A stretch of 49,193 nt of DNA, taken from the IMG/VR virus record IMGVR_UViG_3300045988_148039; one strand, written 5' to 3'. This stretch comes from a virus (Duplodnaviria > Heunggongvirae > Uroviricota > Caudoviricetes). Within the stretch, counting starts at the first letter, position 1. The number at the start of each line of letters is the position of its first letter. This document shows positions 10,591-49,193 of this stretch, one piece after another. The notes under the pieces are model-generated. The model was not told the DNA's origin and did no database searches. It was given only the letters and a program-made list of their open reading frames with translations. The position numbers and the translations under genes are program-made.

Positions 10591-10788
10591 TTAATGCTCG
10601 CGTCGTCCGGCGACAACTTCGGATTTGTATTTCAGGTCGCCCAGCAAGAATTGCAGTTTAAGCATCTTTGCCGCCGTGTAGTTCCCTGATTCCACAACCT
10701 CTTTCATGAGGTCATAAACGGCCGCTACATCATCAGCCAGGAACTCTTTGCGTTGCTGCTCAGTCGCACGTTTGAAGGAAATACGCAT
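10591..10788 (-). CDS. Hypothetical protein
   Basis: 65-aa ORF whose start overlaps the stop of the upstream gene by 1 nt. Confidence 0.35.
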   Translation of the reverse strand: MRISFKRATEQQRKEFLADDVAAVYDLMKEVVESGNYTAAKMLKLQFLLGDLKYKSEVVAGRREH

Positions 10789-11057
10789 TACTCATCATCT
10801 CCTGCTGCACATACAACCTCACAAAAAACATCAGCGGAATGTTTCTCCTTGAACGAATGACGCTCAAAACCGCACTCAATATCAGGCGCAAAAACATCCA
10901 CCACATACGGTCTTTCAGAATGTTTGTTTTCCCAACGATAAACCGTAGTGACGTTGAAATGTTTTAACGCTTCACGGAACTCAACGCTGCCCGTCAGGTT
11001 TTTTGAGGTCAGGTATTGCAGGAGGTTTTTTACTACTTCACGGTCTTGTACTTTCAT
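10788..11057 (-). CDS. Hypothetical protein (first gene behind repeat cassette A)
   Basis: 89-aa ORF; ATG preceded by GGAGA inside the conserved leader. Confidence 0.45.
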   Translation of the reverse strand: MKVQDREVVKNLLQYLTSKNLTGSVEFREALKHFNVTTVYRWENKHSERPYVVDVFAPDIECGFERHSFKEKHSADVFCEVVCAAGDDE

Positions 11058-11065
11058 CGGGTTAT

Positions 11066-11173
11066 CTCCGGTTTAACCAGGGCGGGTATCGCTCGGTTTC
11101 GGGTATAACCATAGGAAATTTTTTCCCACCTGTAAAGCACTTTTTATATAAATCTATAATTATATAATTCTAT
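11066..11173 (-). promoter_or_regulatory. Conserved promoter/leader cassette, copy A (AT-rich palindromic motif plus ~75-nt leader ending in the RBS)
   Basis: Near-identical to 18236..18345 and 27641..27750; contains TATAAATCTATAATTATATAA and ends ...CCGGAGA just before the ATG at 11057. Confidence 0.7.
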
Positions 11174-11757
11174 GACATTTGCCAGAGAGCATCATGCAAC
11201 TGGATACCTCCGTTGCACTGGTTGCCCCAGCCATGCCAGCCATCAGGTAAATCACCGCGAGCAAACAGCTCAATACGAGGAACATCGCCTAACAGCTTTA
11301 CCAGCTTGTCACGGACCACATCAGGCTTCCGAGAATGCTCCAGACGAGGCGATGTAAACGACTGAATGATCCCCGCATCAAGACGGGTCGGCAGTTTGCC
11401 TTTTACCGCAAACAAGCAGTCTTCACTGTTTGCACGAGTCATATGCCCCATCCCCATCACCAGCTTATCTGGTTGTCGGCTACCACATTTGTTCCATGTG
11501 AAGCCCTTCATGGTCATCAGCCTGAATCCCCATGCTTTCACCACCAGCAACGCTTCTTCTGGCTGAGTCGGAACCCACCACATGGCCAACAAACACGATT
11601 CAGGATTAGCAAGCTGCCAGACAGGAATACGAGCAATCTCCTCAGCTTTCATCGTTGGATACTTAAAACCAGCTCCACGATTCCCATCCTTACACTTGTC
11701 TTTGTATTCCCAGGGGGGATCTGCATAAATCAGATTAAACAATGCAATTTCCTCCAT
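11170..11757 (-). CDS. MT-A70-family N6-adenine DNA methyltransferase
   Basis: 195 aa with N-terminal catalytic DPPW motif (LIYADPPWEY). Confidence 0.75.
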   Translation of the reverse strand: MEEIALFNLIYADPPWEYKDKCKDGNRGAGFKYPTMKAEEIARIPVWQLANPESCLLAMWWVPTQPEEALLVVKAWGFRLMTMKGFTWNKCGSRQPDKLVMGMGHMTRANSEDCLFAVKGKLPTRLDAGIIQSFTSPRLEHSRKPDVVRDKLVKLLGDVPRIELFARGDLPDGWHGWGNQCNGGIQLHDALWQMS

Positions 11758-12065: not shown

Positions 12066-12141
12066 TGGTGGCCCCTACCGGATTTGAACCGATGACCGTG
12101 CGATTATGAGTCGCCTGCTCTAACCACTAAGCTAAGGGGCC
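12066..12141 (-). tRNA. tRNA, anticodon CAT (Met, or lysidine-modified minor Ile2 given resemblance to E. coli ileX as I recall it)
   Basis: Reverse complement folds as a cloverleaf: 7-bp acceptor stem GGCCCCT/AGGGGCC, T-arm with TTCAAAT loop, anticodon loop CTCATAA, encoded 3' CCA. Confidence 0.8.
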
Positions 12142-17161: not shown

Positions 17162-18229
17162 TCAGGCTTTCAATAGCGATTCTTTCAGATATCGGGCATC
17201 AGCCAGGGCGTTTGGAGTAATCTTGCGAACCCATGCATTACGGGTTGGACTCCACTTAAAGGCGCGTGATTTAAGCAGCGAACGAATGTTTGCCTCTGGT
17301 TTGCCAGGGAAATAAAACAGGATGCGGTTATCCTCTGGATCTATCTCCATAGAAAAGCCGTCGTATTCTTCGCGCTGTGCTCCTGTTACAGACTTGACCG
17401 ATTCAAGCTCTTTAATACGGCTCTGTAGTCGTTTGATTTCGGCGTTATTGTTACTCAGTGAGTATGAAGGAAAGCCAATGTGCCCACAGAAATCTCCGGC
17501 CAGTAACTCTTTGGCTTCGCTTTCTGTAAACCTGAGATCGATTAATGCAGAAAGCTGCTGTAATTGGTCTTTTTTGTATTTGCGAATGACCTTATTTGCG
17601 GCCTTCATTTTGATGTGTGACTTCATGCAGCCTTGCAGCTTACGAAGCAACTTAAATAGCGCATCAGGATCATCAGACGAAACTCCATTACGGCCGACAC
17701 CTGCGGCTTTGCTCTCGTAGTGTGATGCTTTACTTTCGCATTCAACAAACGCTTTTCTGAATAACGCATCAGCTTTAGACAAACGGCGGCGATGGCCTTT
17801 CGCGCTATAATGGTCAACTAAAATCGGCTGGCCTAACGGGATCACATCCAACAGGTCATGCGCTCGCTTATGCGCCACCGCACCTTCTTTTCTGGCTTTT
17901 TCTGCACAAGCAATATATCGGGCAAGACGCGCGTTCTGGCGTTCCTGATAGGTATTTACGTAATCATCTCCGCGCTGCTGCTGTTCAAGCCATGCTTTGC
18001 GCAGCTTTTCTGTTACGTCTACCAACTCCGCAGGGATACAACCTGTTTGGGATTCATAAGAGTGACCATCCTCATAAAGACGTCCATCGTCTTCAACAAA
18101 GAAAAAGGTTTCGTGCTCATCGCTTTTGACCATACGGCCATTAACATGACGTAATCTATAGCCAGTATCAGTGCTTAACAGGCTGTTAGGGTTGTTGATC
18201 CAGTCAGAAATAATTACTTGTTTATTCAT
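17162..18229 (-). CDS. Hypothetical protein (first gene behind repeat cassette B)
   Basis: Start taken at internal ATG 18229 (MNKQVII...) preceded by GGAGA of the conserved leader; the longer ORF to 18283 would run into the leader. Confidence 0.5.
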   Translation of the reverse strand: MNKQVIISDWINNPNSLLSTDTGYRLRHVNGRMVKSDEHETFFFVEDDGRLYEDGHSYESQTGCIPAELVDVTEKLRKAWLEQQQRGDDYVNTYQERQNARLARYIACAEKARKEGAVAHKRAHDLLDVIPLGQPILVDHYSAKGHRRRLSKADALFRKAFVECESKASHYESKAAGVGRNGVSSDDPDALFKLLRKLQGCMKSHIKMKAANKVIRKYKKDQLQQLSALIDLRFTESEAKELLAGDFCGHIGFPSYSLSNNNAEIKRLQSRIKELESVKSVTGAQREEYDGFSMEIDPEDNRILFYFPGKPEANIRSLLKSRAFKWSPTRNAWVRKITPNALADARYLKESLLKA

Positions 18230-18235
18230 CAGATT

Positions 18236-18345
18236 TCTCCGGTTTAACCAGGGCGGGTATCGCTCGGTTTCGGGTATAACCATAGGAAATTTTTTCCCAC
18301 CTGTAAAGCACTTTTTTATATAAATCTATAATTATATATTTATAG
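18236..18345 (-). promoter_or_regulatory. Conserved promoter/leader cassette, copy B
   Basis: Near-identical to copies A and C; its AT-rich part extends into a longer near-palindrome ATCTATAATTATATATTTATAGAT. Confidence 0.7.
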
Positions 18346-21639: not shown

Positions 21640-21674
21640 TTTGACAACATGTAAAAGTATAAAAGAGGCTACGC

Positions 21675-22049
21675 ATGGAATTACATACAGCCAATAAAAA
21701 CGAAACTCTGATCACTGCTGGAATCGAAATCCAAGCGTTGAACATAGCGATTGAGTGTATGTTATGCCAAATCATTGATAATGAAAAAGATATCGACTGG
21801 ATAGAATCTATCCTTCATCTGGCATCAGAACAAAAAGTCTGCCTCAAAACGGCCTTACAATACGATGTGCCAGCGGTATCGAAGCTGTGCCAGCCATTGA
21901 TGGCATATAACAGGGCTATTATTTCTGTATGCCTCATGATTCTTGATGAAAACACCCCTCTTAGCGACCGCTCAGAAGCTGCTCTAACACTCTCACGTAA
22001 ACAGCGACAGCTAGCAAATCAACTGATATCAACGATAGCTGACCTCTGA
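21675..22049 (+). CDS. Hypothetical protein downstream of cI
   Basis: 124-aa ORF with an AGAGG RBS. Confidence 0.4.
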   Translation: MELHTANKNETLITAGIEIQALNIAIECMLCQIIDNEKDIDWIESILHLASEQKVCLKTALQYDVPAVSKLCQPLMAYNRAIISVCLMILDENTPLSDRSEAALTLSRKQRQLANQLISTIADL

Positions 22050-22075
22050 CTGAAAGCGGGCTAACGCCCGCTTAT

Positions 22076-22180
22076 ATGATTATAGATTTATATAATTATA
22101 TAAAACGCTTTTCATCCGCCAAAAAGTTGGTTATGCTTACCTCGTTCTATAAATATAGATTTATAGAATTATATAACCAA
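22076..22180. promoter_or_regulatory. Two AT-rich palindromic motif copies upstream of the ParA-type gene (candidate centromere/operator)
   Basis: TTATAGATTTATATAATTATATAA and TCTATAAATATAGATTTATAGAATTATATAA read directly. Confidence 0.5.
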
Positions 22181-22184
22181 ACAC

Positions 22185-22853
22185 ATGGAGTCTCGACAAA
22201 TGACTATCTCTGTAGGTATTTTCAACGGAAAAGGCGGCGTAACCAAATCAACAATTGCCCGTGCTTTAGCAGTTGCTTATGCAAAGGCCGGCTGGAATGT
22301 ATGCCTGATCGATATGGATGTGCTTAACGGAACGGTAACGCGTTGGGTACAACGCAGAATGGCCAACAATATCGAACCTGCAATCGCGGCGCAGCCGTGC
22401 GGCACGCCATCACAAGTCCAGAAAATCATCGAATCAGAAGTATACGACCTGGTTATCGTCGATGGCGGTGCCTACGCATCTGAATCAGTACCGAAGCTCT
22501 CTGAATTTCTGGATATGGTTATTTTGCCAACCAGATTCTCTACCGATGACCTGGAAACCACCGTTAACACAGCTCATGGCATCGTTAAAAAGGGTGTGCC
22601 AATCAAGAAAATTTGCATGGTGTTCTCAGGCGCGGCTGAAAACGAAGCCGACTACATTGAAGCCCAAGAGTACCTGGCTAATACGCCATACTTTGTTGTC
22701 GATAAGTACATTCCCCACAAGCCAGCTCTGAGCAAAGCTCAGGATAAGGGCTTAAGCCTCATTGAATGCTCATACGTTGCGCCACGCAAAAAGGCAGACG
22801 ACGTTATTCAGGGGATTATCAACCAGCTTGAGGCTCTGACTACTGCCGCGTAA
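22185..22853 (+). CDS. ParA/ParF-type partition ATPase
   Basis: 222 aa with deviant Walker A NGKGGVTKST. Confidence 0.75.
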   Translation: MESRQMTISVGIFNGKGGVTKSTIARALAVAYAKAGWNVCLIDMDVLNGTVTRWVQRRMANNIEPAIAAQPCGTPSQVQKIIESEVYDLVIVDGGAYASESVPKLSEFLDMVILPTRFSTDDLETTVNTAHGIVKKGVPIKKICMVFSGAAENEADYIEAQEYLANTPYFVVDKYIPHKPALSKAQDKGLSLIECSYVAPRKKADDVIQGIINQLEALTTAA

Positions 22854-22854
22854 T

Positions 22855-22893
22855 ATATAATTATAGTTTTATAGATTTATATAAGAGGGGATA
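22855..22893. promoter_or_regulatory. AT-rich palindromic motif copy between the ParA-type and RHH genes
   Basis: TAATATATAATTATAGTTTTATAGATTTATATAA read directly. Confidence 0.45.
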
Positions 22894-22896
22894 CAC

Positions 22897-23145
22897 ATGG
22901 CCGCACCATCAAAACCACCAAAGAAGAACAGCAAAGGCGTACCGCCATCGATCGAACAACCGCAGGTTTTCGACCCGACTGAAACGCCAGCCAGAACCAA
23001 ATCAGGTGGGGCACAAATGGCGTTTAACGTCGACCCTGAATTTAAACGCGAGTACAAAACGTTCGCCAGCTCAATGGATATGTCATTGAAAGAAGTGCTG
23101 ACAAAATCTTTTGAGTTACTCAAGGCTCAATACAACCAGAAGTAA
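22897..23145 (+). CDS. Ribbon-helix-helix DNA-binding protein (ParG-like partner of the ATPase)
   Basis: 82 aa: Lys/Pro-rich N-terminal tail then RHH-like C-terminus; immediately downstream of the ATPase gene. Confidence 0.5.
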   Translation: MAAPSKPPKKNSKGVPPSIEQPQVFDPTETPARTKSGGAQMAFNVDPEFKREYKTFASSMDMSLKEVLTKSFELLKAQYNQK

Positions 23146-23174
23146 GAGAAGGTGACGGCCTCCAGCGCCAACTG

Positions 23175-23357
23175 TTGGCCGTCGCGACACAACAAGGGGA
23201 ATTTGTTATGTCCGAGCAACAATATACACGGTTACTGAAAACTCGTCTAACCGACCTCAAACGGCTGCAAGCTGGTCGCTTATTTGCCCTGCTATCCACC
23301 AGGCCAGAATGGGTACGTGAAGCAGTTCTGAAAGGCTTAATGCGCTCCAGCGTTTAA
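23175..23357 (+). CDS. Hypothetical small protein
   Basis: 60-aa ORF. Confidence 0.3.
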   Translation: MAVATQQGEFVMSEQQYTRLLKTRLTDLKRLQAGRLFALLSTRPEWVREAVLKGLMRSSV

Positions 23358-23366
23358 ATTCAACCA

Positions 23367-23389
23367 TAAAAAAGGCCCCCGAAGGGGCC
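23367..23389 (-). terminator. Rho-independent terminator (GGCCCC-GAA-GGGGCC with run of T on the minus strand)
   Basis: Perfect GC hairpin preceded on the plus strand by AAAAAAA; read directly. Confidence 0.6.
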
Positions 23390-23395
23390 TAATCG

Positions 23396-23518
23396 CTACT
23401 TGCTGCTAATGTTTATCGTCACATTCAGAGCGTTATCAGTAATCTTCCAACCCTCCCCATGTGGCGTAAACAAAGCTCCAGTAACAACGATAAAAATACA
23501 CATACAGTATTTTTTCAT
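23396..23518 (-). CDS. Small hydrophobic peptide (about 40 aa)
   Basis: Internal ATG at 23518 gives MKKYCMCIFIVVTGALFTPHGEGWKITDNALNVTINISSK; terminator immediately downstream. Confidence 0.3.
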   Translation of the reverse strand: MKKYCMCIFIVVTGALFTPHGEGWKITDNALNVTINISSK

Positions 23519-23916
23519 TGTATGGCCCTTACAGGCCGTTTCACGGCATCCCCACCGACGAAAACAACGCGAGAGCAAGCACGGCTGCTTGTGCTTGCAT
23601 GTACGGCAACGGAGAATCCTCCCCTAAAGTCGGTGCCCGGGTGCGAATCGGCGGGAAGGTCCACAGGTATTTTACGATTATTTTAAGATTAGTAATAGGA
23701 AAGAAATTAAACGAAAAAACTCGTTTATTTTCACAAAATCAGTAACCTACCCACAATCTGTGAGTTTGCAGGCACAACAAGAACCACAATTTTTTGAAGC
23801 ATAATAGTGGACTATTATTACCTTTTGGGTAAAATTAACTTGCTGCTTGTGCTTGCGTGGTTGTTTATACAACAACGTAATGCTGAAAGGACCGCGAATC
23901 CGATCAGCACGAAAGA

Positions 23917-23943
23917 ACCGTCCTCAATAGGGCGGTTTTTTTG
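23917..23943 (+). terminator. Rho-independent terminator-like hairpin (ACCGTCCT-caat-AGGGCGGT then T7)
   Basis: Read directly in an ORF-poor region upstream of the antirepressor. Confidence 0.45.
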
Positions 23944-24034
23944 TTTCTGCCTACCAATAAACCCACGCTATGTGGTTGTCTCTGTTAAAATCCCGCCGTA
24001 TTGACATGAATGCGCCATTGGTGGACACTTTCCG

Positions 24035-24110
24035 AGCCGTAGCAAAATCTACGGTCGGGATTAGCCTCCTGAATAACACGATGGCGCATACCGCGTTAGC
24101 GGTTTTTTTA
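24035..24110 (+). ncRNA. Candidate small antisense RNA (immI/C4-like position upstream of the antirepressor)
   Basis: TTGACA at 24001..24006; about 75 nt with hairpin CCGTAG-caaaatc-TACGG and a 3' hairpin plus T-run at 24090..24109; GATTAGCCTC at 24058 recurs at 24224 next to the following ORF. Confidence 0.3.
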
Positions 24111-24235
24111 TGCGTAGAGCACTGTTACGCCCAAATTATGGTGGGTCGTACAGGGGCGGAGAAATCCGCGCCGGTTCGTCATTGTGTCCGGTAAGGCTAA
24201 CCCTGTACGGCTCACCACCATTTGATTAGCCTCGA

Positions 24236-24463
24236 ATGGCGGTGATAGTTCCATATACTGGAGATATCACAATGACAAACCTACCCCATGACTATTACGT
24301 CAACCTCGTAAAGATCCTTCTCAAGAAAGCCTCATACGCCGATAAATTCCGCCTGGCTGAAATCATCGAGCGCGAAGCTATGCGCATCGCCAGCAACGAT
24401 AACGCTGTTTCTGACGCAAAAATCTCCCTCGTAACCAAAGTAGTTATGGGAGGTGCAAAATGA
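24236..24463 (+). CDS. Small protein upstream of and overlapping the antirepressor start
   Basis: 75-aa ORF; stop overlaps the antirepressor ATG. Confidence 0.35.
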   Translation: MAVIVPYTGDITMTNLPHDYYVNLVKILLKKASYADKFRLAEIIEREAMRIASNDNAVSDAKISLVTKVVMGGAK

Positions 24464-25611
24464 AAACGCTTCGGACCGTTAACACCCTACAGCCTATCCT
24501 GCATAATCAGATTCCAGTAATCACAACTGAGCTACTCGCCCGCCTTTATGGAACAGAAGCAATCCGTATACAGCAAAATCACCATGAAAATAAAACTCGG
24601 TTCATTGAGGGGAAGCACTTCTTTAAAGCTGTTGGTGATGAACTCAAAAATTTGCGACTAGTTTTAAACGAGTCACAAAATGAGGTACAAATTTCCCCCA
24701 AAACTCGCTCTCTCATCCTCTGGACAGAACGTGGGGCTGCACGTCACGCTAAAATGCTCGAAACCGATCAGGCGTGGGATGTGTTCGAACGTCTGGAAGA
24801 CTGCTATTTCAGCCAGAACGCGCAAACGGCCGCGACCGTAACCGTCTCACCAAACAATGCTCGTGAGGTTGTCGATACGCTCAACGCCAAACCAATGTAT
24901 TACGTTAAGGTGTGCAACAACGAGCCACTCACAACCTCAGCCGATGTTGCCCAAGCATTCAGCACCACAAACAATTCCATCGTTATGGCCATCGATGCGT
25001 TACGCATTCCTCGCACGGCTGCGGCGCGTCACTTCTTTAAAGAACAACGACCGCTGGAAGGAAGCGACCGCGAAATAACAATCTATCGCATGACAAAAGA
25101 CGGATTTACCTTGCTCATGGAGAGTATCGACGGTCCAGGCGTGAAAGATATCAAGCTGGCCTACATTGAAGCCTTTAACGCTATCAGCAGCGTGTTAAAA
25201 ACACAGTACGAGCGTGATCTGGCTAAACGACTGTACCAGGAAAAAACGATTATCCGCGCGGCAACAGAGCATAATCGGCTATTAACGGAACCGAACTACA
25301 GGAAGGAACTAATAAAGGAGTTTGACAAGGCAACAGGGAAAACCAAAGCGGCGCTAAATCTGCCAGCAATGACTCAGGAAAATGTGATATCAGCCTTACT
25401 TCTTGATCTGCTCAGAAACGCCAGAGCACTTATCAGCTTTGACGAAAATCTGAACCCTCAGCTCAAACTACTACCACCGACAGGCAAAGTAGTCGACCAA
25501 GCTGATCACAACAGCATACTCAGCGTACTGGATGCAAACCTGCCAGCCAAGACACTACAGGAACTGATAAAAATATCTGCGGATAAACTGGCCGCAGGTG
25601 CAAAACCATAA
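24460..25611 (+). CDS. Antirepressor-like protein
   Basis: 383 aa; domain assignment (KilA-N/ORF6N-like N-terminus, Rha-like middle) is from memory of those families. Confidence 0.6.
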   Translation: MKTLRTVNTLQPILHNQIPVITTELLARLYGTEAIRIQQNHHENKTRFIEGKHFFKAVGDELKNLRLVLNESQNEVQISPKTRSLILWTERGAARHAKMLETDQAWDVFERLEDCYFSQNAQTAATVTVSPNNAREVVDTLNAKPMYYVKVCNNEPLTTSADVAQAFSTTNNSIVMAIDALRIPRTAAARHFFKEQRPLEGSDREITIYRMTKDGFTLLMESIDGPGVKDIKLAYIEAFNAISSVLKTQYERDLAKRLYQEKTIIRAATEHNRLLTEPNYRKELIKEFDKATGKTKAALNLPAMTQENVISALLLDLLRNARALISFDENLNPQLKLLPPTGKVVDQADHNSILSVLDANLPAKTLQELIKISADKLAAGAKP

Positions 25612-27252: not shown

Positions 27253-27633
27253 TTACTTAACGAGGAATAAAAATGGTTTATTGTTAGGCGGTGTAATCGG
27301 GGCTGGCTCGCTTTTGCTCATGCGATCAGTGTACCAGGCCAGCTCCTTGTCAAAGTAAGCCTGATTAAAATAGGCCATGAATGTAGTTTCAAATCCATAA
27401 CGACCGCTAATACGCAGCATCTGATTGCCGTTCTCTGTTTCCAGATATACCTGGGCACGTTCCTGATTCTCCTTCAGCCAGGTTAAAGCCTCGTCGCACG
27501 AGGACACACGATACTCATCATCGTAGCCGTCATCGATGCGGCTTGAAGAAGAACGGCAAATCACGCCAACAGAACCAGCCAGGATAGTTTGAATTTTAAG
27601 GAAAGCGTTTTTGCGGATTTTGATCATGCTCAT
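27253..27633 (-). CDS. Hypothetical protein (first gene behind repeat cassette C)
   Basis: 126-aa ORF; ATG preceded by GGAGA of the conserved leader. Confidence 0.45.
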   Translation of the reverse strand: MSMIKIRKNAFLKIQTILAGSVGVICRSSSSRIDDGYDDEYRVSSCDEALTWLKENQERAQVYLETENGNQMLRISGRYGFETTFMAYFNQAYFDKELAWYTDRMSKSEPAPITPPNNKPFLFLVK

Positions 27634-27640
27634 CGGGTTT

Positions 27641-27750
27641 TCTCCGGTTTAACCAGGGCGACTATCGCTCGGTTTCGGGTATAACCTTAGGAAATTTTTT
27701 CCCACCTGTAAAGCAGTTTTTATATAAATCTATAATTATATAATTCTATG
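27641..27750 (-). promoter_or_regulatory. Conserved promoter/leader cassette, copy C
   Basis: Differs from copy A at a handful of positions over about 105 bp; read directly. Confidence 0.7.
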
Positions 27751-27796
27751 AGCACAAAAAAGCCCCTTTGCAACAGGGGCTTATCATTCGTTCTGA

Positions 27797-29905: not shown

Positions 29906-30886
29906 TTAATGTTGGAGTGATTTCCAGGTCTTTCTTAGCCTGTTATAACGCTGCTCAACGAGGGAGCGTAAATATGCAAGGTCAGCTCCAGGATACATGC
30001 CATCAGCAAATTCCTGGCTAACCTCTCTAGTGATTTGATGACGAAGTTCGGCCTCTCCCTTTTCCCGAACAAGACGCGCAGCTCTCTCCGCTGCTTTCTG
30101 TTTTGCCTTTATCTCTCTGGCCGTCTTCCTCTGACGCCATACATTCTCCATCTGCTCCTGAATAACAATACGCTTATAATCAGCCTCCGTTATCGCTTTT
30201 TTAAGCCGTTCGCTATTCTTCGCATTGAAGTAATTAAGTTTCTGGCTAACCGCACGTCTCCATGCTTGTTCAGTAATACCAACGGTTTCCAGCAGTTGAT
30301 CACGAATCTCTATTTTCGCTGGCCAATACTGTTTATTCACCCGATCCCAGCGACGTTCATAATCAATAAAACCTAACGCTTTCAGTTGCGACAACGCCCT
30401 TGTACAGCGCGTTATAGACTTGTTCCCAGCTTCGGATACGGTAGACAGGCCGCAAAAATCAGCCAACGCCTCAGCACTAGCCAGAACCCGCTTAGAAATG
30501 ATGTTTACATGGTGCAAAATCGCAGCGATCACAGCATTAATCGCCCGACGACGATGCTCGTTTATCCGGCGCTTCCGCTCTGACGGTTGATTAACGTAGA
30601 ACGCAACCTCACACGTAAGATCACGCCCATTAATGCGCTGTAAAGCATCAGATAACACCAGCGGCAGCTTGTGCGTATGGTGCTTTGGAGGCTGGAACTC
30701 CGGCGACAAATTACAAACGTAAGCTGAACGTAGAGACGGCATTGGTCTATCCATATGTTCGCTCTTGCGTCCACGGAAAACCAACGTATAATGGGAGTTG
30801 TCGAGGCGCCCATGGATTGTTGTTGTTGGTTTTCCGTGGATGTCGCAAGAAGCCCGCAGATTTATCTGCGGGCTTTTTGTTTCCAT
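29906..30886 (-). CDS. repA: Plasmid replication initiator RepA (IncFII/RepFIIA-type); true start possibly internal (MDRPMPS, about 30754)
   Basis: Central segment NKSITRCTRALSQLKALGFIDYERRWD resembles R100/R1 RepA1 KLSITRATRALTFLSELGLITYQTEYD as I recall it; basic C-terminal half; length about 280 aa from the internal start. Confidence 0.7.
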   Translation of the reverse strand: METKSPQINLRASCDIHGKPTTTIHGRLDNSHYTLVFRGRKSEHMDRPMPSLRSAYVCNLSPEFQPPKHHTHKLPLVLSDALQRINGRDLTCEVAFYVNQPSERKRRINEHRRRAINAVIAAILHHVNIISKRVLASAEALADFCGLSTVSEAGNKSITRCTRALSQLKALGFIDYERRWDRVNKQYWPAKIEIRDQLLETVGITEQAWRRAVSQKLNYFNAKNSERLKKAITEADYKRIVIQEQMENVWRQRKTAREIKAKQKAAERAARLVREKGEAELRHQITREVSQEFADGMYPGADLAYLRSLVEQRYNRLRKTWKSLQH

Positions 30887-31067
30887 ATCTGGTCACTTTC
30901 CAACCAGACACCCACAATCATAACCACGTTACGTGGTTTTAAGAGAACTCTACCACAACACTTTCGGTCATGCACGAAGTCTCTCACTGATCGAACGATA
31001 ATCCACCAGTAAAAGGATCTAAATTGGATCTCGTTTTGCGAGCATCATACTACTGGCCTAACTCCAG

Positions 31068-31622
31068 TCAATGATTCCCAGCCGGAAACCTGCGGTAAAG
31101 CGTGGATAAGGTAACATCGAAGATAATCGCTATCTGCTTACGTGAAACACCATTCGCAATAAGCCTTCCGATCTGTTCCCATTGCTCTGGTGCCAATTTT
31201 GAGCGGCGTCCTCCTATCCTGCCGTTAGCCCTTGCCACCGCCAATCCTGCACGCGTTCTTTCAATCATATTTTCCCGCTCCATCTCTGCGACTGCACTCA
31301 GCATCGTGTAGGCAAAGCGGCCAATTGAAGTGCTAATTTTTATCCCTTCCGTAATCGAAATAAACTCAATGTTGTTTGATAAAAAATAATTAAGTAAATC
31401 AACAAGATGAATCAGAGAGCGCCCCATTCGGTCCAGCTTCCAGACAATAACCGTATCGCCCGGCCGTAACACCTTCAGTAGCTTATCAAGTCCTGGTCGT
31501 TTTGATTTAGCACCGGATATTTTATCTTCAAAAATCCGGTCACATCCTGAACTCCTGAGCGCCTCCAGTTGTAATTCCAAATTCTGGTCAAAAGTTGACA
31601 CCCTCGCATAACCATATTGCAT
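31068..31622 (-). CDS. Serine recombinase, Gin/Hin/Pin/Cin-family DNA invertase
   Basis: 184 aa; MQYGYARVSTFDQNLELQ, VWKLDRMGRS and C-terminal HTH closely parallel Gin as I recall it. Confidence 0.9.
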   Translation of the reverse strand: MQYGYARVSTFDQNLELQLEALRSSGCDRIFEDKISGAKSKRPGLDKLLKVLRPGDTVIVWKLDRMGRSLIHLVDLLNYFLSNNIEFISITEGIKISTSIGRFAYTMLSAVAEMERENMIERTRAGLAVARANGRIGGRRSKLAPEQWEQIGRLIANGVSRKQIAIIFDVTLSTLYRRFPAGNH

Positions 31623-31693
31623 ACTTTCTAAACCGCGATTGTTGCTAAAAGCGGGAAAAAATATCGTTCAGACGACACAGAGGCAATTCGCAA

Positions 31694-31720
31694 AAACCTC
31701 GGTTTACAGGAAACGGTAAA
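31694..31720. repeat. Invertase crossover site, left copy (AAACCTCGGTTTACAGGAAACGGTAAA)
   Basis: Inverted copy of 34751..34775 with one mismatch in the shared core; encodes ...LGLQETVN... in both fiber reading frames. Confidence 0.8.
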
Positions 31721-32720
31721 CAGGGCTGGTAACGCCGTGCAAAAAAATGGCGATACTTTGTCCGGTGGGCTTACTTTTGAAAATGACTCAATCCTTGCCT
31801 GGATTCGAAATACTGACTGGGCGAAGATTGGATTTAAAAATGATGCCGATGGTGACACTGATTCATACATGTGGTTTGAAACAGGCGACAACGGCAATGA
31901 ATATTTCAAATGGAGAAGCAAACAAAGCACCACAACAAAAGACCTGATGAATCTTAAATGGGATGCTTTGTCTGTTCTTGTTAAAGCCCTTTTCAGCAGT
32001 GAAGTAAAAATATCGACAGTCAATGCACTGAGGATATTTAATTCATCTTTTGGTGCCATTTTTCGCCGTTCTGAAGAATGCCTGCATATCATCCCTACAC
32101 GAGAGAACGAGGGAGAAAATGGTGATATAGGGCCACTACGCCCCTTTACGCTTAATCTTAGAACTGGTCGGATAAGCATGGGGCATGGTCTTGATGTTAC
32201 AGGGGATATATTTGCAAACCGTTTTGCAATTAACAGTAGTACCGGCATGTGGATTCATATGCGTGACCAGAATGTTATTTTGGGACGCAATGCGGTATCC
32301 ACCGATGGTGCGCAGGCATTACTTCGTCAGGACCATGCTGATCGCAAATTTATGATTGGTGGGCTGGGAAATAAGCAATTTGGCATCTACATGATTAATA
32401 ACTCAAGGACAGCCAATGGCACCGATGGTCAGGCGTACATGGATAATAACGGGAACTGGCTTTGCGGTGCGCAAGTTATTCCCGGCAACTATGGCAATTT
32501 TGATTCCAGATATGTGAAAGATGTTCGACTTGGTTCACAGCAATATTATGGAGTGAACAACTGGCAAACATGGAATTTCCAGTGCCCGTCAGGTCATGTA
32601 TTGTCTGGTATTAATGTTCAGGATACAGGGTCCAACTCTGCCGATAATATAGCGGGCGTTTATTACAGACCCGTTCAAAAGTATATAAATGGCACCTGGT
32701 ATAATGTAGCGAGCGTTTAA
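31694..32720 (+). CDS. Alternative tail-fiber C-terminal segment (no own start; fused to the constant part after inversion)
   Basis: Frame open upstream to the crossover site with no start codon; C-terminus ...[11 protein letters not shown] matches the current fiber's ...INGTWYNAGSI. Confidence 0.7.
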
Positions 32721-32721
32721 T

Positions 32722-33249
32722 ATGATGCACTTAAAGAACATAAAAGCGGGTAACGCTAAAACACTGGAGCAGTATGAGTTAACAAAGAAGCACGGAGTCA
32801 TCTGGCTTTACTCTGAGGACGAAAAAAACTGGTATGAGGAAGTGAAAAACTTTCAGCCAGACACAATAAAGATTGTTTACGATGAAAATAATATTATTGT
32901 CGCCATCACCAAAGATGCATCCACGCTTAACCCTGAAGGTTTTAGCGTCGTTGAGGTTCCCGATATAACGGCCAATCGTCGGGCCGATGATTCCGGTAAG
33001 TGGATGTTTAAGGACGGAGCTGTGGTTAAACGGATTTATACGGCAGACGAACAGGAACAACAGGCCGAATCACAAAAGGCCGCGTTACTTTCCGAAGCAG
33101 AAAGCATTATTCAGCCACTGGAACGCGCTGTCAGGCTGAATATGGCGACGGATGAGGAACGCGCACGACTGGAGTCATGGGAACGCTACAGCGTTCTGGT
33201 CAGCCGTGTGGATACAGCAAAGCCCGAATGGCCACAAAAGCCTGAGTAA
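32722..33249 (+). CDS. Tail fiber assembly chaperone (for the alternative fiber tip)
   Basis: 175 aa starting MMHLKNI; paralog of 33278..33811. Confidence 0.75.
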
Positions 33250-33277
33250 AAATTAAGGCCCAATATCGGGCCTTCTC

Positions 33278-33811
33278 TCATTCTGGTTGTTCGGGAAACG
33301 TTACTGGCAGGCTGGAGGTGTCTGTGGATTCGACTTTCTGCGCGTAAAGCATCCACTCGGTTAATTTTTGTTTATTCTCGTCGGAAATGATGCCCAGCCG
33401 TAGCTGTGAGTCCCATAGCTGGGTTTTATCCCTGACAAGTTGCAACAGGCTTTGCTTTTCATTCTCTGCCTGCTGCCTCTGTTCCTCCTCGGTATAAGTT
33501 CGCTTTATCACTACGCCATCTTTGAACATCCATTTACCCGAAATATCAGCCCGGCGATTTGCTGTAATATCAGGAACCTCAACGACGCTTGCGCCTTCTG
33601 GATTAATTGCTGAAACATCCTTTTCAATACAAATAATAACGTCGTTGTGGTCATAGACCATTTTCAACGTATCAGGCTGAAAGTTCTTTTGTTCCTCATA
33701 CCAGTTTTTCCCATCCTCTGTATAAAGCCATTTGATGTTAAATTGTTTCGTTAGCTGGTATTGCTCTTTTGTTTTAGGGTTGCCAGCAGTAATATTTTTT
33801 AAGTGCATCAT
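33278..33811 (-). CDS. Tail fiber assembly chaperone (for the currently expressed fiber tip)
   Basis: 177 aa starting MMHLKNI; immediately downstream of the fiber gene. Confidence 0.75.
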   Translation of the reverse strand: MMHLKNITAGNPKTKEQYQLTKQFNIKWLYTEDGKNWYEEQKNFQPDTLKMVYDHNDVIICIEKDVSAINPEGASVVEVPDITANRRADISGKWMFKDGVVIKRTYTEEEQRQQAENEKQSLLQLVRDKTQLWDSQLRLGIISDENKQKLTEWMLYAQKVESTDTSSLPVTFPEQPE

Positions 33812-33813
33812 AA

Positions 33814-36132
33814 TTAAATACTCCCCGCGTTATACCACGTTCCATTAATGCAATACTGAATTGGCCTTGCCTGAGTTGTATCAATTAATTCATCACGGTT
33901 TCCGTTAACTGAACCAGTAACGACATAACCTGACCTGTCAGACCAGCCGGGACCATTCCATGTCTGAACAGATGACAGACCGCCAAGGCGAATACCTGTA
34001 ATAAATCTTGAGTTACATTCTGCCTGCGTGTATGCACCAACATCTCCCGCAGAGGGTTTGCGGGTTGTGGTGTAAAACTCTGACCAGTCAGCTTCAAAGC
34101 CATAACCATCACGCGCTGAACGATAAAAGATACCGCCATTTCTGTAATTCACGCGGAACTGTACAGCAGGGCTGCTCCCCGTATTCATATTGAAGTGGAG
34201 GATTAATGTCGATGCGCCACCAATATTTGCGTTATAGACCCCGCTATTCCAGTTCCAGCCAACAGCTTTATCATTTCCGACAGTGCTTCCTGTCTGCCCT
34301 AAAGCAAATGCAGGCTGCTGGTTTTTCGTATTGTAGTCTCGTCGCCAGCCAGGAGCATAAGCATCACCATGATTAATATAAGTGAATTGAGCGTTAGTAA
34401 TTCCGCCACCGCTGGACGTGCTCGGCGTGGTAACGCGTATGGTCATTGCGCCGCGAGTGCCAATAACTTCTACCACAGCACCTGCAAGACAAATATTTCC
34501 GCAACCTGTATCTGTAATGACCTTATTATTTGCATAAGCCCATGAGCCTTTGCACATCCAGTAAGGATGGTTAAATGCCCCCTGACTCTCCAGCCACGAA
34601 ATGAATTGTGCGGTTGTCCAGGCCTGACTATCGCCACCAATATTCAGCCATGAGCTATATGCGCGGCAGGCCCCAATATTTTTGGTGAAGGTATCTTTTC
34701 CCGGAATATCTGCGCCGTTCTGGTTTTTCTGTAATGCGCCAGAAGCCTGATTTACCGTTTCCTGCAAACCGAGGTATTCGATAACGGCGGCAACGGTAGA
34801 TTTCGCAAGAATATCCCGCCCGACTTTTGTCAGAGTTGCCAGGCTGGCGACATCATTCCCCGTAAAATACGGAAACCTGTCTGCCGCAGTAGCAAGCCCG
34901 GCCAGCGCCGTCAGGGTGGCATCTTTCGGTTGCTTACCCGCAAGCGCGTTAGTCATGGTGGTCGCAAAATTCGGGTCGTTGCCCAACGCCGCAGCCAGCT
35001 CGTTCAGCGTATTCAGTGCGTCAGGCGACGAGTCCACGAGGGCAGCGATCGCAGCCATAACATAAGCCGTGCTTGCGATCTGAGTATTGTTAGTACCTTT
35101 TGGCGCAGTTGGTGTTGTTGGTGTTCCGGTCAGCGCCGGACTGTTCAGGGGCGCTTTCTTGTTCGTTTCATCCATTACCACCTTTACAGCTTTCGATGTC
35201 GCGGCCAGTGTTTCAGACGTGCTGTTGGTGGCACTACTGAGCTGAGTTATTCCCCTTACAGTCAGTGAAGCTACAGGCACATTTGTTATCTGCTCCCACG
35301 AATGCGTGTGATTGGACGGAGCCTTTCCGGCCGCAAGATCATACGCTGCCTTAACAGCCTTTGGTGTTGCTGCTAGCGTTTCAGACGTGCTGTTGGTGGC
35401 ACTACTGAGCTGAACAATCCCTTTTCGCGCTGTGGTAGCGTCCTGTGCGGTGTATTTGGCATTAGCCAGGTCATATGCTGCCTTAACAGCCTTAGGCGTC
35501 GCAGCAAGCGTTTCAGACGTGCTATTGGTGGCGCTGCTAAGTTGAACAAAGCCTTTTGAGGTTAAAGTTGCATCAGGATGATTACGTGATTGTTCATGTT
35601 TCACAATGGCTTGCTTAAGCCGCTTTGCTGAAACAGCAAGGGAATCATCTGTACCGTCATCAATTTCTTGTTCATTGGCAAATCTTGCAACCCCAACAAC
35701 AGTTTCGGTTGCGGGAGGATTAATAAACTCAATATCACCAAATGTAATATTTTTAGTATCAAGAGTCTTGATTGCTATGTCACTTGATATTAAAGCAATA
35801 GTAGATGATGCTTTATTTATTATTGCTTGTTCTTGCGAGTATACAGCAAACAACGTTCCCTTATTTGTATACAATCCTATTGTATGGACAACATACTCAT
35901 CTTTACTATCATCCTTCGCCGTTACATGAATTGTATCAGGGGAAACAACTTTGCCACCTATTGTGGTAAGTCGCTTTATTTCGTTTGTTATATTTGTTTG
36001 TGAGGTTGACGTGACATAATATCTACTACCTAAACCAACAGAAACAATCTCAACTTTATTTGTTCCTGTTTTATTGGCATTAACCAGCTCCTGACGCCCG
36101 GCGTCAGTCATCGTAAATAATAATTTACTCAC
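33814..36132 (-). CDS. Tail fiber protein (constant N-terminal part fused to one of two variable C-terminal parts)
   Basis: 772 aa with three tandem ~30-aa repeats QLSSATNSTSETLAATPKAVK; crossover site lies inside at residues ~454-461. Confidence 0.85.
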   Translation of the reverse strand: MSKLLFTMTDAGRQELVNANKTGTNKVEIVSVGLGSRYYVTSTSQTNITNEIKRLTTIGGKVVSPDTIHVTAKDDSKDEYVVHTIGLYTNKGTLFAVYSQEQAIINKASSTIALISSDIAIKTLDTKNITFGDIEFINPPATETVVGVARFANEQEIDDGTDDSLAVSAKRLKQAIVKHEQSRNHPDATLTSKGFVQLSSATNSTSETLAATPKAVKAAYDLANAKYTAQDATTARKGIVQLSSATNSTSETLAATPKAVKAAYDLAAGKAPSNHTHSWEQITNVPVASLTVRGITQLSSATNSTSETLAATSKAVKVVMDETNKKAPLNSPALTGTPTTPTAPKGTNNTQIASTAYVMAAIAALVDSSPDALNTLNELAAALGNDPNFATTMTNALAGKQPKDATLTALAGLATAADRFPYFTGNDVASLATLTKVGRDILAKSTVAAVIEYLGLQETVNQASGALQKNQNGADIPGKDTFTKNIGACRAYSSWLNIGGDSQAWTTAQFISWLESQGAFNHPYWMCKGSWAYANNKVITDTGCGNICLAGAVVEVIGTRGAMTIRVTTPSTSSGGGITNAQFTYINHGDAYAPGWRRDYNTKNQQPAFALGQTGSTVGNDKAVGWNWNSGVYNANIGGASTLILHFNMNTGSSPAVQFRVNYRNGGIFYRSARDGYGFEADWSEFYTTTRKPSAGDVGAYTQAECNSRFITGIRLGGLSSVQTWNGPGWSDRSGYVVTGSVNGNRDELIDTTQARPIQYCINGTWYNAGSI
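34751..34775. repeat. Invertase crossover site, right copy (TTTACCGTTTCCTGCAAACCGAGGT)
   Basis: Inverted copy of the left site, located inside the fiber gene. Confidence 0.8.
35173..35559. repeat. Three tandem ~75-nt direct repeats encoding the fiber repeat motif
   Basis: Repeated nucleotide blocks (GTTTCAGACGTGCTGTTGGTGGCACTACTGAGCTGA and variants) read directly. Confidence 0.7.
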
Positions 36133-36162
36133 GCTTAATTCCTTGAATAAACAAATTGCGAA

Positions 36163-36744
36163 TTAGCACTCGCCAATTAATCGTATATAAGACACAGGCT
36201 GACAAGCACCAACAATACCGACACCACCAGAAACATTGGCTGCTTGCGAAAATGTAAATAATGTTCTTGCCGACTTTGCGCTCTTGATACTTCTTAACGT
36301 ATCTTCCAACATCTCTTTCGAAGGAACGGCACCATCAAAAGAGTTAATCGAAGCAACAATTGAGGCTGTATATGGTTCGCCAGGTGGTGATGTTTCAAAC
36401 CATTCTGTTATGTTTACCTCTCCACCCAAGCTATTTACTACATCTTCAACCGCTGCCCTTGTACCCTTTATTCGCTTTGTTCGTATTATTGATTTGAAAA
36501 CAGAACGCTTTAACGATACAGGCCAACTATCCCTCCATGTATCAGCATTCCATTGCCAAGCTAAATGATCGAGAACAACTGAGTCAAGGTTATCAACAAC
36601 GCTATATATTTCTGTCTTATATATTAAATTGTTAATTGCTTGTAGTTCATCATCAATAGCTTTCGACATAGCTATCACGTTGGGATCGCTAGCTAAGTTA
36701 GGAGGTAAAACATCCAACAAGCTAACATTAAAGATATCAGCCAT
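36163..36744 (-). CDS. Tail protein, P2 gpI-like (baseplate)
   Basis: 193-aa ORF between the J-like gene and the fiber gene; positional and size match. Confidence 0.6.
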   Translation of the reverse strand: MADIFNVSLLDVLPPNLASDPNVIAMSKAIDDELQAINNLIYKTEIYSVVDNLDSVVLDHLAWQWNADTWRDSWPVSLKRSVFKSIIRTKRIKGTRAAVEDVVNSLGGEVNITEWFETSPPGEPYTASIVASINSFDGAVPSKEMLEDTLRSIKSAKSARTLFTFSQAANVSGGVGIVGACQPVSYIRLIGEC

Positions 36745-37861
36745 CCTCTAACCCCGCATACTGGCAATTTATATTTCTCTCTCTGGCGACCTGTGTCTCT
36801 CCAACCACAGTAAATACAGGACTTGATATTTCTAATCTTTTAGCTCCAGCATTTTTTAAACGTTGAATAATTTCATCTGGATTTATATCTCTTCCCATAA
36901 CTGAACGTTGCCATTGTTTATACTCATCAATAGCTTTCTCAACCTCACCTTGAATTAAAGTTGTTCTGTTTTTGTCCGATGAGTTAATCCAGTATTTAAT
37001 TATTATATCGTATTCAATGCTCTCTGGTTTCTTAACAAGAACTTTATCTGTGAATGGTCGAATATTAGTTGCAGAGAGAACGCTATTTATCTGCTCTAAT
37101 AGTTCATCAGAAGGTATATCTCCGTTCTCTAACAAAGAACGGATTTCTACAGTTCCGGGCGATGGTGTATATACATTCACATCTTTTATATTCTGATTGG
37201 CTGTTCTTGTCCAATATTTATAAGAATCCTCCGGCCCTGCTGTAGACAGTTTTTCCGGCGACAGTTTTATTCTTTCAGCATAATTATCATCTGACTCTGT
37301 ATCAGCACCAGAATTAGATGTTGTTAGATTCCTTACGCTGGAAACATACGGCAACGGAGTCACCAACTCGTTTATTTGCCCAGGTAAAAAGCCATTCCCC
37401 GATAAGCCAGGTATAACAGCATATCCTGAGACTGTACCAACTGTTTTCCCAGCTGGTATTTCCAACAAAACATCTGTTTGGAAAATAACACTATTTCCAG
37501 TTGAAATTTGAGTGCCAGCAGGTATTGTATATATCCCCGATAATTTTGTTGACAGATTAAACTCAAATGTAGTCAAGGCAGATTGAGCTTCCAGCCTAGG
37601 CGTATCCGTCAGATAGCCTATATGGTCGAGATATTCACCTTCACCATATGTAAGAAGGTTTTGTTTTGCAGAAAAATCTATAGCTTTTCTTTGCTGTATA
37701 ATAATCTCACACAATGATAAGATGAATAATCTACGTGGATCAGCAGGTGCTAATGTTTCACCTGTTATACTCTCAAAAGCCCTGATTGAACGAGTTGTTA
37801 TATCAGTCGGGTTAGAATCTGCGAAAGTAATATCTGGCAAACCACCACGCGGCAACGTCAT
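36737..37861 (-). CDS. Baseplate protein, gpJ-like
   Basis: 374 aa, downstream of the W-like gene. Confidence 0.7.
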   Translation of the reverse strand: MTLPRGGLPDITFADSNPTDITTRSIRAFESITGETLAPADPRRLFILSLCEIIIQQRKAIDFSAKQNLLTYGEGEYLDHIGYLTDTPRLEAQSALTTFEFNLSTKLSGIYTIPAGTQISTGNSVIFQTDVLLEIPAGKTVGTVSGYAVIPGLSGNGFLPGQINELVTPLPYVSSVRNLTTSNSGADTESDDNYAERIKLSPEKLSTAGPEDSYKYWTRTANQNIKDVNVYTPSPGTVEIRSLLENGDIPSDELLEQINSVLSATNIRPFTDKVLVKKPESIEYDIIIKYWINSSDKNRTTLIQGEVEKAIDEYKQWQRSVMGRDINPDEIIQRLKNAGAKRLEISSPVFTVVGETQVARERNINCQYAGLEDG

Positions 37862-48669: not shown

Positions 48670-49193
48670 TTAATTTTTATCGCGGTTTTTAAATACTGAT
48701 CCAATAACATTTTTTACTGCTTCAGCTTGTTTATCGCCGTTGTTTTCTGGTTGATTAACATCAACTGAATCATTCACCTCATTTGCGTCTTCTTGACGTT
48801 GATTAAGAAAGTTTTTGTTACGCGCTCGCTCTGCATTCATAATTTCCAAAGCAAGTTCAGCAGCAGAAACACCCGTTTTGAATTTTGCATTCTTAACTAG
48901 GTCGTCATGACCTGGAATCACGCTATTCTCGATTGTCTCAATGCGCTCGCGCTCTGATTTAACGCCCTCGTCTTTACCAGCATTAAAAACCTGATTGTAT
49001 AATTCTGGATGTTTATTCTTTAATTCATCAAGAGTCACAACATCGTCCTCATTTTGTTCATTTAATTCAGTAGATAATTCATTTTTATTTTGTGGCAACT
49101 TTGCGAGCGAATCAGGTAATTTTGAAAACCTTGATGCTTCAAAAGTTATTCCATTGAGCGAAAGCATCCCTTCCTTTATGGAAGCAGATAGCC
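48670..49193 (-). CDS. Head protease/scaffold, C-terminal part of the junction-spanning gene
   Basis: Same frame as the 1..618 fragment through the 77-bp duplication; charged C-terminal half typical of a scaffold region. Confidence 0.65.
   Translation of the reverse strand, partial: LSASIKEGMLSLNGITFEASRFSKLPDSLAKLPQNKNELSTELNEQNEDDVVTLDELKNKHPELYNQVFNAGKDEGVKSERERIETIENSVIPGHDDLVKNAKFKTGVSAAELALEIMNAERARNKNFLNQRQEDANEVNDSVDVNQPENNGDKQAEAVKNVIGSVFKNRDKN
49117..49193. repeat. Terminal direct duplication (copy of 1..77)
   Basis: Exact identity with the window start. Confidence 0.9.

Follow-up and report, generated by a model that had tools for sequence, protein, structure and literature searches.

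The window, by which we mean the whole stretch of 49,193 nt analysed here, represents a circular phage-plasmid of 49.1 kb, whose head genes are of lambda type and whose contractile tail is of P2 type. It carries a DNA invertase gene, two crossover sites and, between these sites, two sets of fibre-tip and chaperone genes. The features referred to below are as follows.

4846-5436, 6730-8109 and 8103-8726: three open reading frames (ORFs) with a ParB_N domain, directly upstream of the terminase gene
22185-22853: ParA-type ATPase
29906-30886: IncFII-type RepA, adjoining the invertase gene
31068..31622, minus strand: gene for a 184-aa DNA invertase, which belongs to the small serine recombinases (Gin/Hin/Cin group)
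31533..31604: candidate recombinational enhancer (coding nt 19-90 of the invertase gene), proposed from homology to P1 cin
31687..31712, plus strand: left gix-like crossover site (26 bp), TTCGCAAAAACC-TC-GGTTTACAGGAA; alignment with Mu gixL/gixR puts the central TC at 31699-31700
31700..34771: invertible segment of 3,072 bp; 31693-34787 is 89-96% identical in nt sequence to the Mu G segment
31700..32720, plus strand: silent fibre tip (Sv'), which lacks a start codon and presumably a promoter; Pfam Gp34_trimer
32722..33249, plus strand: silent fibre assembly chaperone, Mu U-like; Pfam Caudo_TAP
33255..33274: GC-rich, terminator-like hairpin between the two convergent chaperone genes, a consensus match only (minus-strand scan)
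33278..33811, minus strand: chaperone of the pair expressed at present, Mu U'-like (98.9% aa identical to Mu U'); Pfam Caudo_TAP
33814..34771, minus strand: fibre tip (Sv) expressed at present, Mu S'-like (97.5% aa identical to the Mu S' variable part)
33814..36132, minus strand: whole fibre ORF, 772 aa in the sequenced orientation
34759..34784, minus strand: right 26-bp crossover site, within the fibre ORF; minus-strand sequence TTATCGAATACC-TC-GGTTTGCAGGAA, central TC at 34772-34771
34772..36132, minus strand: constant fibre N-terminus (Sc) of about 454 codons, outside the segment; three Pfam Phage_fiber_2 domains

The initial annotation had placed a Gin-like invertase beside a segment of about 3.1 kb, and the ORF, the segment length, the domains and the structural match all bear this out. 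The predicted protein contains the Pfam domains Resolvase (residues 3-135; 3.3e-44) and HTH_7 (residues 138-181; 2e-14), its best PDB match is Gin (3UJ3/4M6F, E=4.5e-62, residues 2-181 aligned), and it is 56% identical to Gin and equally so to Cin. The ORF is intact, and Ser9, Asp64, Arg65 and Arg68 are all kept in the alignment, these residues being present in 117-118 of the 118 aligned homologues. Judging from its domains, catalytic residues, crossover sites and Fis-contact residues, the enzyme appears to belong to the Fis/enhancer-dependent subclass (Gin/Hin/Cin/Pin). RefSeq annotates in this phage-plasmid family a "recombinase family protein" and a "tail fiber protein", and nothing more.

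The two 26-bp sites are inverted relative to each other, have the same asymmetric 2-bp core (TC), and match Mu gix at 22/26 and 21/26 positions. Inverted sites of about 25 bp had been recognized before at 31694-31720 and 34751-34775; the inverted match itself is confirmed (24/25 positions), but the functional 26-bp sites lie 7-9 bp further out, and the shared 25-nt stretch is composed of the site core and of shared coding sequence (LGLQETVN). An inverted match of 25 nt with at most one mismatch was found in none of 200 shuffles of 30000-37500. A larger inverted repeat surrounds both (31693-31747 and 34724-34778; 55 nt, 76%), and the longest exact runs common to its two arms are 10 and 14 nt. 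The 18-nt site core occurs only twice in the whole window, and a search of the 49 kb allowing up to three mismatches gave no crossover site beyond the two. As there are just two sites and two cassettes, we regard the locus as a simple binary switch, not as a multi-site shufflon of the p15B Min type.

Within the segment, the ORF map contains the two fibre C-terminal parts and the two oppositely oriented chaperone genes that had been described, arranged as two convergent pairs of tip and chaperone. The silent tip has 70% aa identity to the Mu S variable part and matches PDB 5YVQ_A (E=3.9e-151), and the silent chaperone has 90.9% aa identity to Mu U and matches 5YVQ_B (E=2.6e-102), while the expressed fibre matches PDB 8JU3 over aa 450-772 (E=1.2e-224); these entries are solved structures of Mu S-U and S'. 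The hairpin between the chaperone genes, AAGGCCCGATATTGGGCCTT, is followed by a T-rich tail; it is a consensus match in a terminator scan. Sc comes after the P2-I/baseplate-J genes and contains 93-nt direct repeats at 35165-35557. The positions of the sites agree with the earlier reading that the left one lies in an open frame without a start and the right one inside the fibre gene: the right site falls at codon 454, and the plus-strand frame through the left site, which ends at 32720, is open from 31632, its first possible start being a GTG at 31737 within the segment. When the segment is inverted in silico, an in-frame fibre of 793 aa is formed, whose residues 1-461 are common with the present 772-aa fibre, and the chaperone is exchanged together with the tip, as had been anticipated for the tip.

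We compared the window with related public sequences for the orientation of the segment. In pHN68-3, whose invertase protein is identical to that of the window (184/184), the segment is inverted with colinear flanks, and the predicted inverted left junction is present with 100% identity over 601 nt. Between two assemblies of Escherichia coli ATCC 25922, CP009073 and CP158444, colinearity is 99.9% apart from one block of 3,071 bp, which is 99.97% identical and inverted; such 48,488-bp assemblies are of high quality and equal length, and the inversion is their sole difference. The tandem record CP032086 contains one copy in each orientation, 48,488 bp apart, and both orientations are common among the assemblies of this one strain. 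The sibling enzyme that is found with the two orientations in a single strain, and within a single record too, is identical to that of the window at 181/184 positions, and its sites are identical. Virion DNA of the Yersinia phage vB_YpM_44, with an invertase identical at 182/184 positions, has the site pairing opposite to that of the window. Inversion of the segment thus occurs in siblings with a 98-100% identical enzyme and identical sites. In pHN68-3, in the ATCC 25922 assemblies and in the tandem record, the inner half-site changes place together with the segment, while the outer one keeps to its flank. An A/G difference located 6 bp inside the core travels with the segment in both ATCC 25922 comparisons, and the outer half-sites remain with the flanks, which places the crossover inside the 10-bp ACC-TC-GGTTT. 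Detection of one orientation only had been named beforehand as a finding that would speak against a switch; the siblings and the single-strain assemblies hold both, with breakpoints at the site centres, and the switch of the window is real and, on this sibling evidence, almost certainly active.

We consider it highly probable that the locus is a two-state site-specific inversion switch of the Gin/G-segment type, by which a temperate myovirus that persists as a plasmid controls its host range. The fibre gene starts in Sc, outside the segment and presumably with its promoter there, and reads over the right site into the adjoining tip; in the present state the product is the 772-aa fibre with the Mu S'-type tip, followed by the Mu U'-type chaperone. 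By analogy with the enzyme family, invertase dimers would bind both inverted sites and pair them in a supercoil-dependent complex, with host Fis probably bound at the candidate enhancer; this complex would cut both sites at the central TC/GA, turn one half by 180 degrees and religate. Flipping of 31700-34771 fuses Sc in frame to the other tip, giving the 793-aa fibre with a Mu S-like tip and a Mu U-type chaperone directly behind it, while the former pair is left with no start codon and presumably no promoter. The accompanying change in receptor specificity is an extrapolation from Mu.

Two other explanations deny that the window carries a working invertase switch or that the database orientations reflect one. 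The locus might be a frozen relic, its sites and cassettes being the remains of an ancestral switch that has stopped working through loss of invertase or site function; the window, being a single sequence, shows one orientation only, its invertase departs from the classical enzymes at the regulatory positions Asp46 and Thr106, and no clear promoter stands upstream of the invertase gene, the scan of 30800-36400 having yielded no sigma-70-like promoter for it above chance (fewer matches than in shuffled sequence). We give this explanation very little credence. The invertase ORF has kept every catalytic residue, the identical protein adjoins an inverted segment in pHN68-3, nearly the same enzyme with the same sites is accompanied by both orientations in ATCC 25922, and the clade with Asp46 and Thr106 always adjoins fibre cassettes, whose arrangements differ between contigs. 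That the orientations in the databases are assembly errors, or products of RecA-dependent homologous recombination across the inverted repeat, is scarcely credible. The repeat does have real homology over its 55 nt, and one ATCC 25922 record, CP037450, is a poor assembly with many frameshifts; but exact runs of 10 and 14 nt are, in our judgement, below the usual assembler k-mers and the length for efficient RecA exchange, and the good 48,488-bp assemblies differ by the inversion alone. Furthermore, the A/G difference accompanies the segment in all of the compared pairs, so that the exchange falls in the 10 bp around the TC core, outside the longer identical run of 14 nt further in.

A different question is how the inversion switch is controlled. 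In Hin, Gln151, Arg154 and Leu155 in helix 1 of the DNA-binding domain contact Fis and are uniquely conserved in the invertase subclass; helix B contacts the enhancer, and its position 47 is an invariant Lys in 15 aligned invertases, with Lys or Arg at 48 and 51 (PMC3798978). The corresponding Gln150, Arg153 and Leu154 are kept in the window and in 113-114 of the 118 homologues (about 96%), and helix B of the window enzyme has, in Gin numbering, Asp46, Lys47 and Lys50, i.e., two of the three basic residues. Enzymes with at least 69% identity to that of the window form a large, unnamed enterobacterial clade, which occurs on phage-plasmids of 48 kb and of 90-100 kb and in P2-like prophages of Citrobacter. 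Its members have Asp or Asn at the position of Gin Lys46, the single exception being P0019 with Lys, and Thr at the position of Gin His106 (Hin 107). These substitutions suggest that control of the reaction may differ from that in Gin and Hin.

The switch could therefore be the same but under a different control, the clade having lost or relaxed its dependence on Fis and the enhancer and flipping more freely than Gin. In favour of this are the Thr at the site where the H107Y substitution makes Hin Fis-independent (PMC3798978), the acidic or amide residue in place of the invariant Lys that contacts the enhancer, and the frequency of both states among single-strain assemblies. We regard such a control as unlikely, since the Fis-contact patch and most of the basic residues of helix B remain, and single helix-B substitutions in Hin have no more than modest effects (PMC3798978). 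The candidate enhancer points in the same direction: cores of the form G-N13-C at coding nt 22-36 and 71-85 (31587-31601 and 31538-31552, the candidate Fis cores) lie in the gin register and within the region that corresponds to the annotated P1 cin enhancer, which is weak evidence, and synonymous codon identity is raised in codons 7-30 (0.57, versus 0.42 in the rest of the gene), which is a modest signal. Strict matching to the Fis consensus is too degenerate to decide. It is decidedly improbable that the whole clade flips with relaxed or no Fis dependence as a natural counterpart of the laboratory "hyperactive" invertases; if it did, relaxed Fis control could account for the frequent finding of plasmid-borne copies in both orientations.

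Returning to the two-state switch of the Gin type, we next describe the element that carries it. The virion had been portrayed as a mosaic with a lambda-type head, and the portal (lambda family), the terminase (gpA type) and the capsid protein (E type) support this. The additional statement of the initial annotation that the element is free of ParB does not hold, as the aforementioned three ParB_N-domain ORFs and the ParA-type ATPase attest, and the description as a Mu-type switch on a mosaic virion, which is correct for the switch, has to be extended, because the element is also a phage-plasmid with an IncFII-type RepA. Membership in the pSLy3 phage-plasmid group was considered and rejected because the literature places pSLy3 in the SSU5 supergroup of about 100 kb, and the "pseudolysogenic" Yersinia phage HQ103, a 32-kb P2-like phage, proved not relevant as a description of the family. 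Our literature search found no specific description of the 48-kb family or of its switch; programmed inversions in fibre genes have been catalogued in general (PMC9881135), and D6-like plasmid prophages have been described with their tail-fibre inversions (PMC6799933).

The mechanism has long been known, and this switch adds an ordinary example, which changes nothing in it. Its usefulness lies in the fact that the phage-plasmid family is widespread in E. coli and occurs also in the reference strain ATCC 25922: the switch explains the 3.1-kb inversion differences between assemblies of the same plasmid and the occasional pseudogene label on the fibre gene. These elements are predicted to release virions of two host-range types. 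Fibre-tip cassettes have long been thought to travel between unrelated phages as mobile modules, and this old idea is consistent with the finding that the DNA similarity to Mu stops at the crossover sites, no Mu-like similarity being found past 34787.

Among known systems, the Mu G segment with Gin has the identical layout, with Sc outside the segment, Sv-U and U'-Sv' convergent inside, and the invertase gene just past the far site and transcribed away from the segment. The TC core is equal and the inner half-sites are identical or one base apart, whereas the outer half-sites differ (TTCGCAAAAACC and TTATCGAATACC in the window, TTATCCAAAACC in Mu). Mu is a transposable phage and the window a plasmid prophage with a lambda-type head; Sc, the baseplate and the whole element are unrelated. 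P1/P7, with the C segment and Cin, and the D6-like plasmid prophages are also phage-plasmids with an invertible fibre-tip segment, and they share about 88-92% DNA identity with the window over much of the cassettes. The annotated enhancer of P1 cin occupies the 5' part of that gene, where the candidate enhancer of the window is also placed. Unlike the window, P1 has cin directed towards the segment with cixL at its 3' end, its C segment is longer (4.2 kb), and its virion and replicon modules differ; the gix-like core pattern of the window has no match in the P1 locus. Hin of the Salmonella H segment shares the enzyme class, the 26-bp sites with a 2-bp core and the Fis-contact residues, but flips a promoter, whereas the window flips a coding cassette, and the window enzyme lacks Lys47 and His107 of Hin in the alignment. 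Pin of e14 is a classical Fis-dependent DNA invertase of the same class and 26-bp site design. In p15B Min and other multi-site fibre shufflons, as in the window, a serine invertase rearranges fibre C-termini on a phage-plasmid, and relatives of the window invertase adjoin multi-fragment arrays, whereas the window has two sites and two cassettes.

Two 26-bp gix-like sites were seen when both ends of the segment were aligned with the boundaries of the Mu G segment, and the region is organized as follows.

31068-31622, minus strand: invertase ORF, 184 aa (ORF list; Pfam Resolvase and HTH_7)
31687-31712: left site, TTCGCAAAAACC-TC-GGTTTACAGGAA (alignment with Mu boundaries)
31737-32720, plus strand: mechanical ORF of the silent tip, 327 aa (Pfam fibre trimerisation domain)
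32722-33249, plus strand: chaperone ORF, one of a facing pair of 175/177 aa (Pfam Caudo_TAP)
33255-33274: GC-rich hairpin and T-rich tail, separating the convergent chaperone genes (scan)
33278-33811, minus strand: chaperone ORF, the other of the 175/177-aa pair (Pfam Caudo_TAP)
33814-36132, minus strand: fibre ORF, 772 aa (ORF list; three Pfam Phage_fiber_2 repeats)
34759-34784: right site, minus strand reading TTATCGAATACC-TC-GGTTTGCAGGAA (alignment with Mu boundaries)

Between the central dinucleotides lies a segment of 3,072 bp (31700-34771), and both gix sites of Mu read TTATCCAAAACC-TC-GGTTTACAGGAA. The inverted sites of about 25 bp that the initial annotation had marked at 31694-31720 and 34751-34775 do agree at 24 of 25 positions; these stretches hold the site core, but the rest of them is shared coding sequence giving LGLQETVN on both sides. 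A repeat finder reports the inverted repeat as 55 nt long with 76% identity (31693-31747 and 34724-34778). Because none of 200 shuffles of the region yielded a match like the 25-nt pair, and the 18-nt site core occurs in the window only twice, both times at these sites, the observation is real and not due to chance.

The cassette resembles the Mu G segment with DNA identity of 89-96% over 31693-34787, so the similarity ends at the outer site edges. The expressed tip, which in the window's orientation is joined to the constant part of the fibre, shares 97.5% identity with the variable part of Mu S' and has a match in the S' structure 8JU3; the chaperone that accompanies it shares 98.9% identity with U'. 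The silent tip and its chaperone are 70% and 90.9% identical to Mu S and U, respectively, and match the solved S-U complex 5YVQ. On translation, the silent-tip frame is open back to 31632, and its earliest start codon is a GTG at 31737. When 31700-34771 was inverted in silico, an open fibre of 793 aa was obtained that has residues 1-461 in common with the 772-aa form, with the other chaperone directly downstream; inversion would thus swap the tip, as had been proposed from the sequence, together with its chaperone.

In the constant part of the fibre, three 93-nt direct repeats (35165-35557) code for the Phage_fiber_2 units. Fibre lengths among relatives vary (744, 772 and 802/816 aa), probably through the repeat number of these units. 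For several relatives, both the fibre gene and the silent tip bear pseudogene or fragment labels in RefSeq, e.g. at 21643-25372 of plasmid pHN68-3; the silent tip is so labelled because the switch architecture leaves this cassette without a start codon, and such labels in the relative plasmid CP037450 arise because its assembly is frameshift-rich.

The proposed flipping is borne out by sibling elements carrying the segment in both orientations. The junctions that inversion would create were constructed, and 5,426 complete E. coli genomes were searched for them and for the window-type junction; the latter was found at full length in 9 genomes and the predicted inverted junction in 12. In pHN68-3, which encodes an invertase protein identical to the window's, the inverted junction is 100% identical over 601 nt, and the flanks are colinear while the segment between them is inverted. 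The clearest case is the 48,488-bp plasmid of E. coli ATCC 25922, whose invertase is identical to the window's at 181 of 184 residues and whose sites are identical to the window's. Its records CP009073 and CP158444 are 99.9% colinear save for a block of 3,071 bp, which is 99.97% identical but inverted, and CP032086 is a tandem assembly whose two copies, 48,488 bp apart, have opposite orientations. Virion DNA of Yersinia phage vB_YpM_44 (invertase 182/184 identical) likewise has the site pairing opposite to the window's.

In both ATCC 25922 comparisons, an A/G difference 6 bp inside the core accompanies the segment, whereas the outer half-sites remain with the flanks; the exchange therefore lies within ACC-TC-GGTTT, the position expected for a serine invertase. 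Homologous recombination could in principle invert the segment, but it would favour the longer identical run, that of 14 nt further in, and the position of the exchange argues against it. Misassembly is also argued against by the shortness of the exact shared runs, 10 and 14 nt. Inversion at the site core by the invertase is thus preferred to both.

The invertase shares 56% identity with each of Gin and Cin, and Gin is its closest solved structure (E=4.5e-62). Mu has the same layout, with the invertase gene just past the far site and pointing away from the segment, whereas cin of P1 points towards the segment. In the P1 record, coding nt 19-90 are annotated as the Cin enhancer, and the homologous stretch of the window, 31533-31604, contains G-N13-C cores in the gin register; among six invertase genes, synonymous identity is 0.57 in codons 7-30 versus 0.42 elsewhere in the gene. 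These two features are suggestive of a candidate enhancer at 31533-31604.

In Hin, McLean et al. described Gln151, Arg154 and Leu155 as Fis contacts uniquely conserved in the invertase subclass, basic residues 47/48/51 as enhancer contacts, and H107Y as a change conferring Fis independence (PMC3798978). The window's invertase retains all three Fis-contact residues, but Asp replaces the "always Lys" residue and Thr replaces the His of H107Y. In an alignment of 118 homologues, Thr106 combined with either Asp46 or Asn46 characterizes almost the entire clade at ≥69% identity; at the positions of Gin His106 and Lys46, the more distant relatives as well as Gin and Cin have His and, mostly, Lys, and the Fis contacts Q150/R153/L154 persist throughout. 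These paired substitutions at regulatory positions, which may alter the control of inversion, are the sole mildly unusual point of the switch.

Clade members always adjoin fibre cassettes, in P1/D6-like plasmids and P2-like Citrobacter prophages, and some adjoin multi-fragment arrays whose order differs between contigs with the same invertase. Two contig pairs (L012 and L013 at 1300-4900; L014 and L015 at 1-5000) carry several tip fragments and chaperones differing in order and orientation. Such contigs represent multi-site, shufflon-like forms of the switch, in both kinds of element.

The ends of the window overlap by 77 nt (1-77 identical to 49117-49193); the contig is therefore circular, with a length of 49,116 bp, and represents a whole phage-plasmid. 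The overlap itself resembles an assembler k-mer overlap. An IncFII-type RepA gene adjoins the invertase gene, and the window also encodes a ParA-type ATPase, a lambda-family portal, a gpA-type terminase, an E-type capsid protein, a tape-measure protein and P2-type baseplate J and I; sheath and tube genes are annotated in pHN68-3. The initial annotation had called this element ParB-free, wrongly, since three ORFs with ParB_N domains sit immediately upstream of the terminase gene, one of them fused to a methyltransferase domain. Close relatives are plasmids of ~48-50 kb in E. coli, E. albertii, E. fergusonii and Klebsiella, plus one isolated phage. Other features are listed here.

4846-5436, 6730-8109 and 8103-8726, minus strand: ParB_N-domain ORFs, upstream of the lambda-gpA-type terminase gene
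12066-12141, minus strand: tRNA, anticodon CAT (Met by ARAGORN; tRNA-Ile in RefSeq on the pHN68-3 counterpart)
23368-23664, minus strand: ryfA sRNA family, full-length match (142 bits; gathering score 80)
24036-24109: isrK (Rfam)
24134-24222: C4 antisense RNA (Rfam)
24460-25611: ORF6N and Rha-domain ORF, after isrK and the C4 antisense RNA

The stretch 24036-25611 resembles an antisense-RNA/antirepressor immunity module of the P1 ImmI type, here carried by a non-P1 element. An element of ~115 nt occurs in three near-identical copies (11053-11180, 18225-18344 and 27630-27755), each finishing on the minus strand with GGAGA-N-ATG at a gene start (10788-11057, 17162-18229 and 27253-27633), and looks like a repeated promoter/leader cassette for three separate operons.

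P1, P7 and D6 are phage-plasmids with long-known invertible fibre segments, as is p15B. Systematic surveys have already placed fibre genes among programmed inversions (PMC9881135; PMC6799933), and our literature search found no paper on this particular 48-kb phage-plasmid family or its switch. The switch works like Mu G/Gin, every testable feature of which is present, and differs from it in its divergent invertase, its outer half-sites and its host element. Given this Mu G/Gin-like function and the long-known fibre inversions of phage-plasmids, the mechanism is therefore already known and the example is new.
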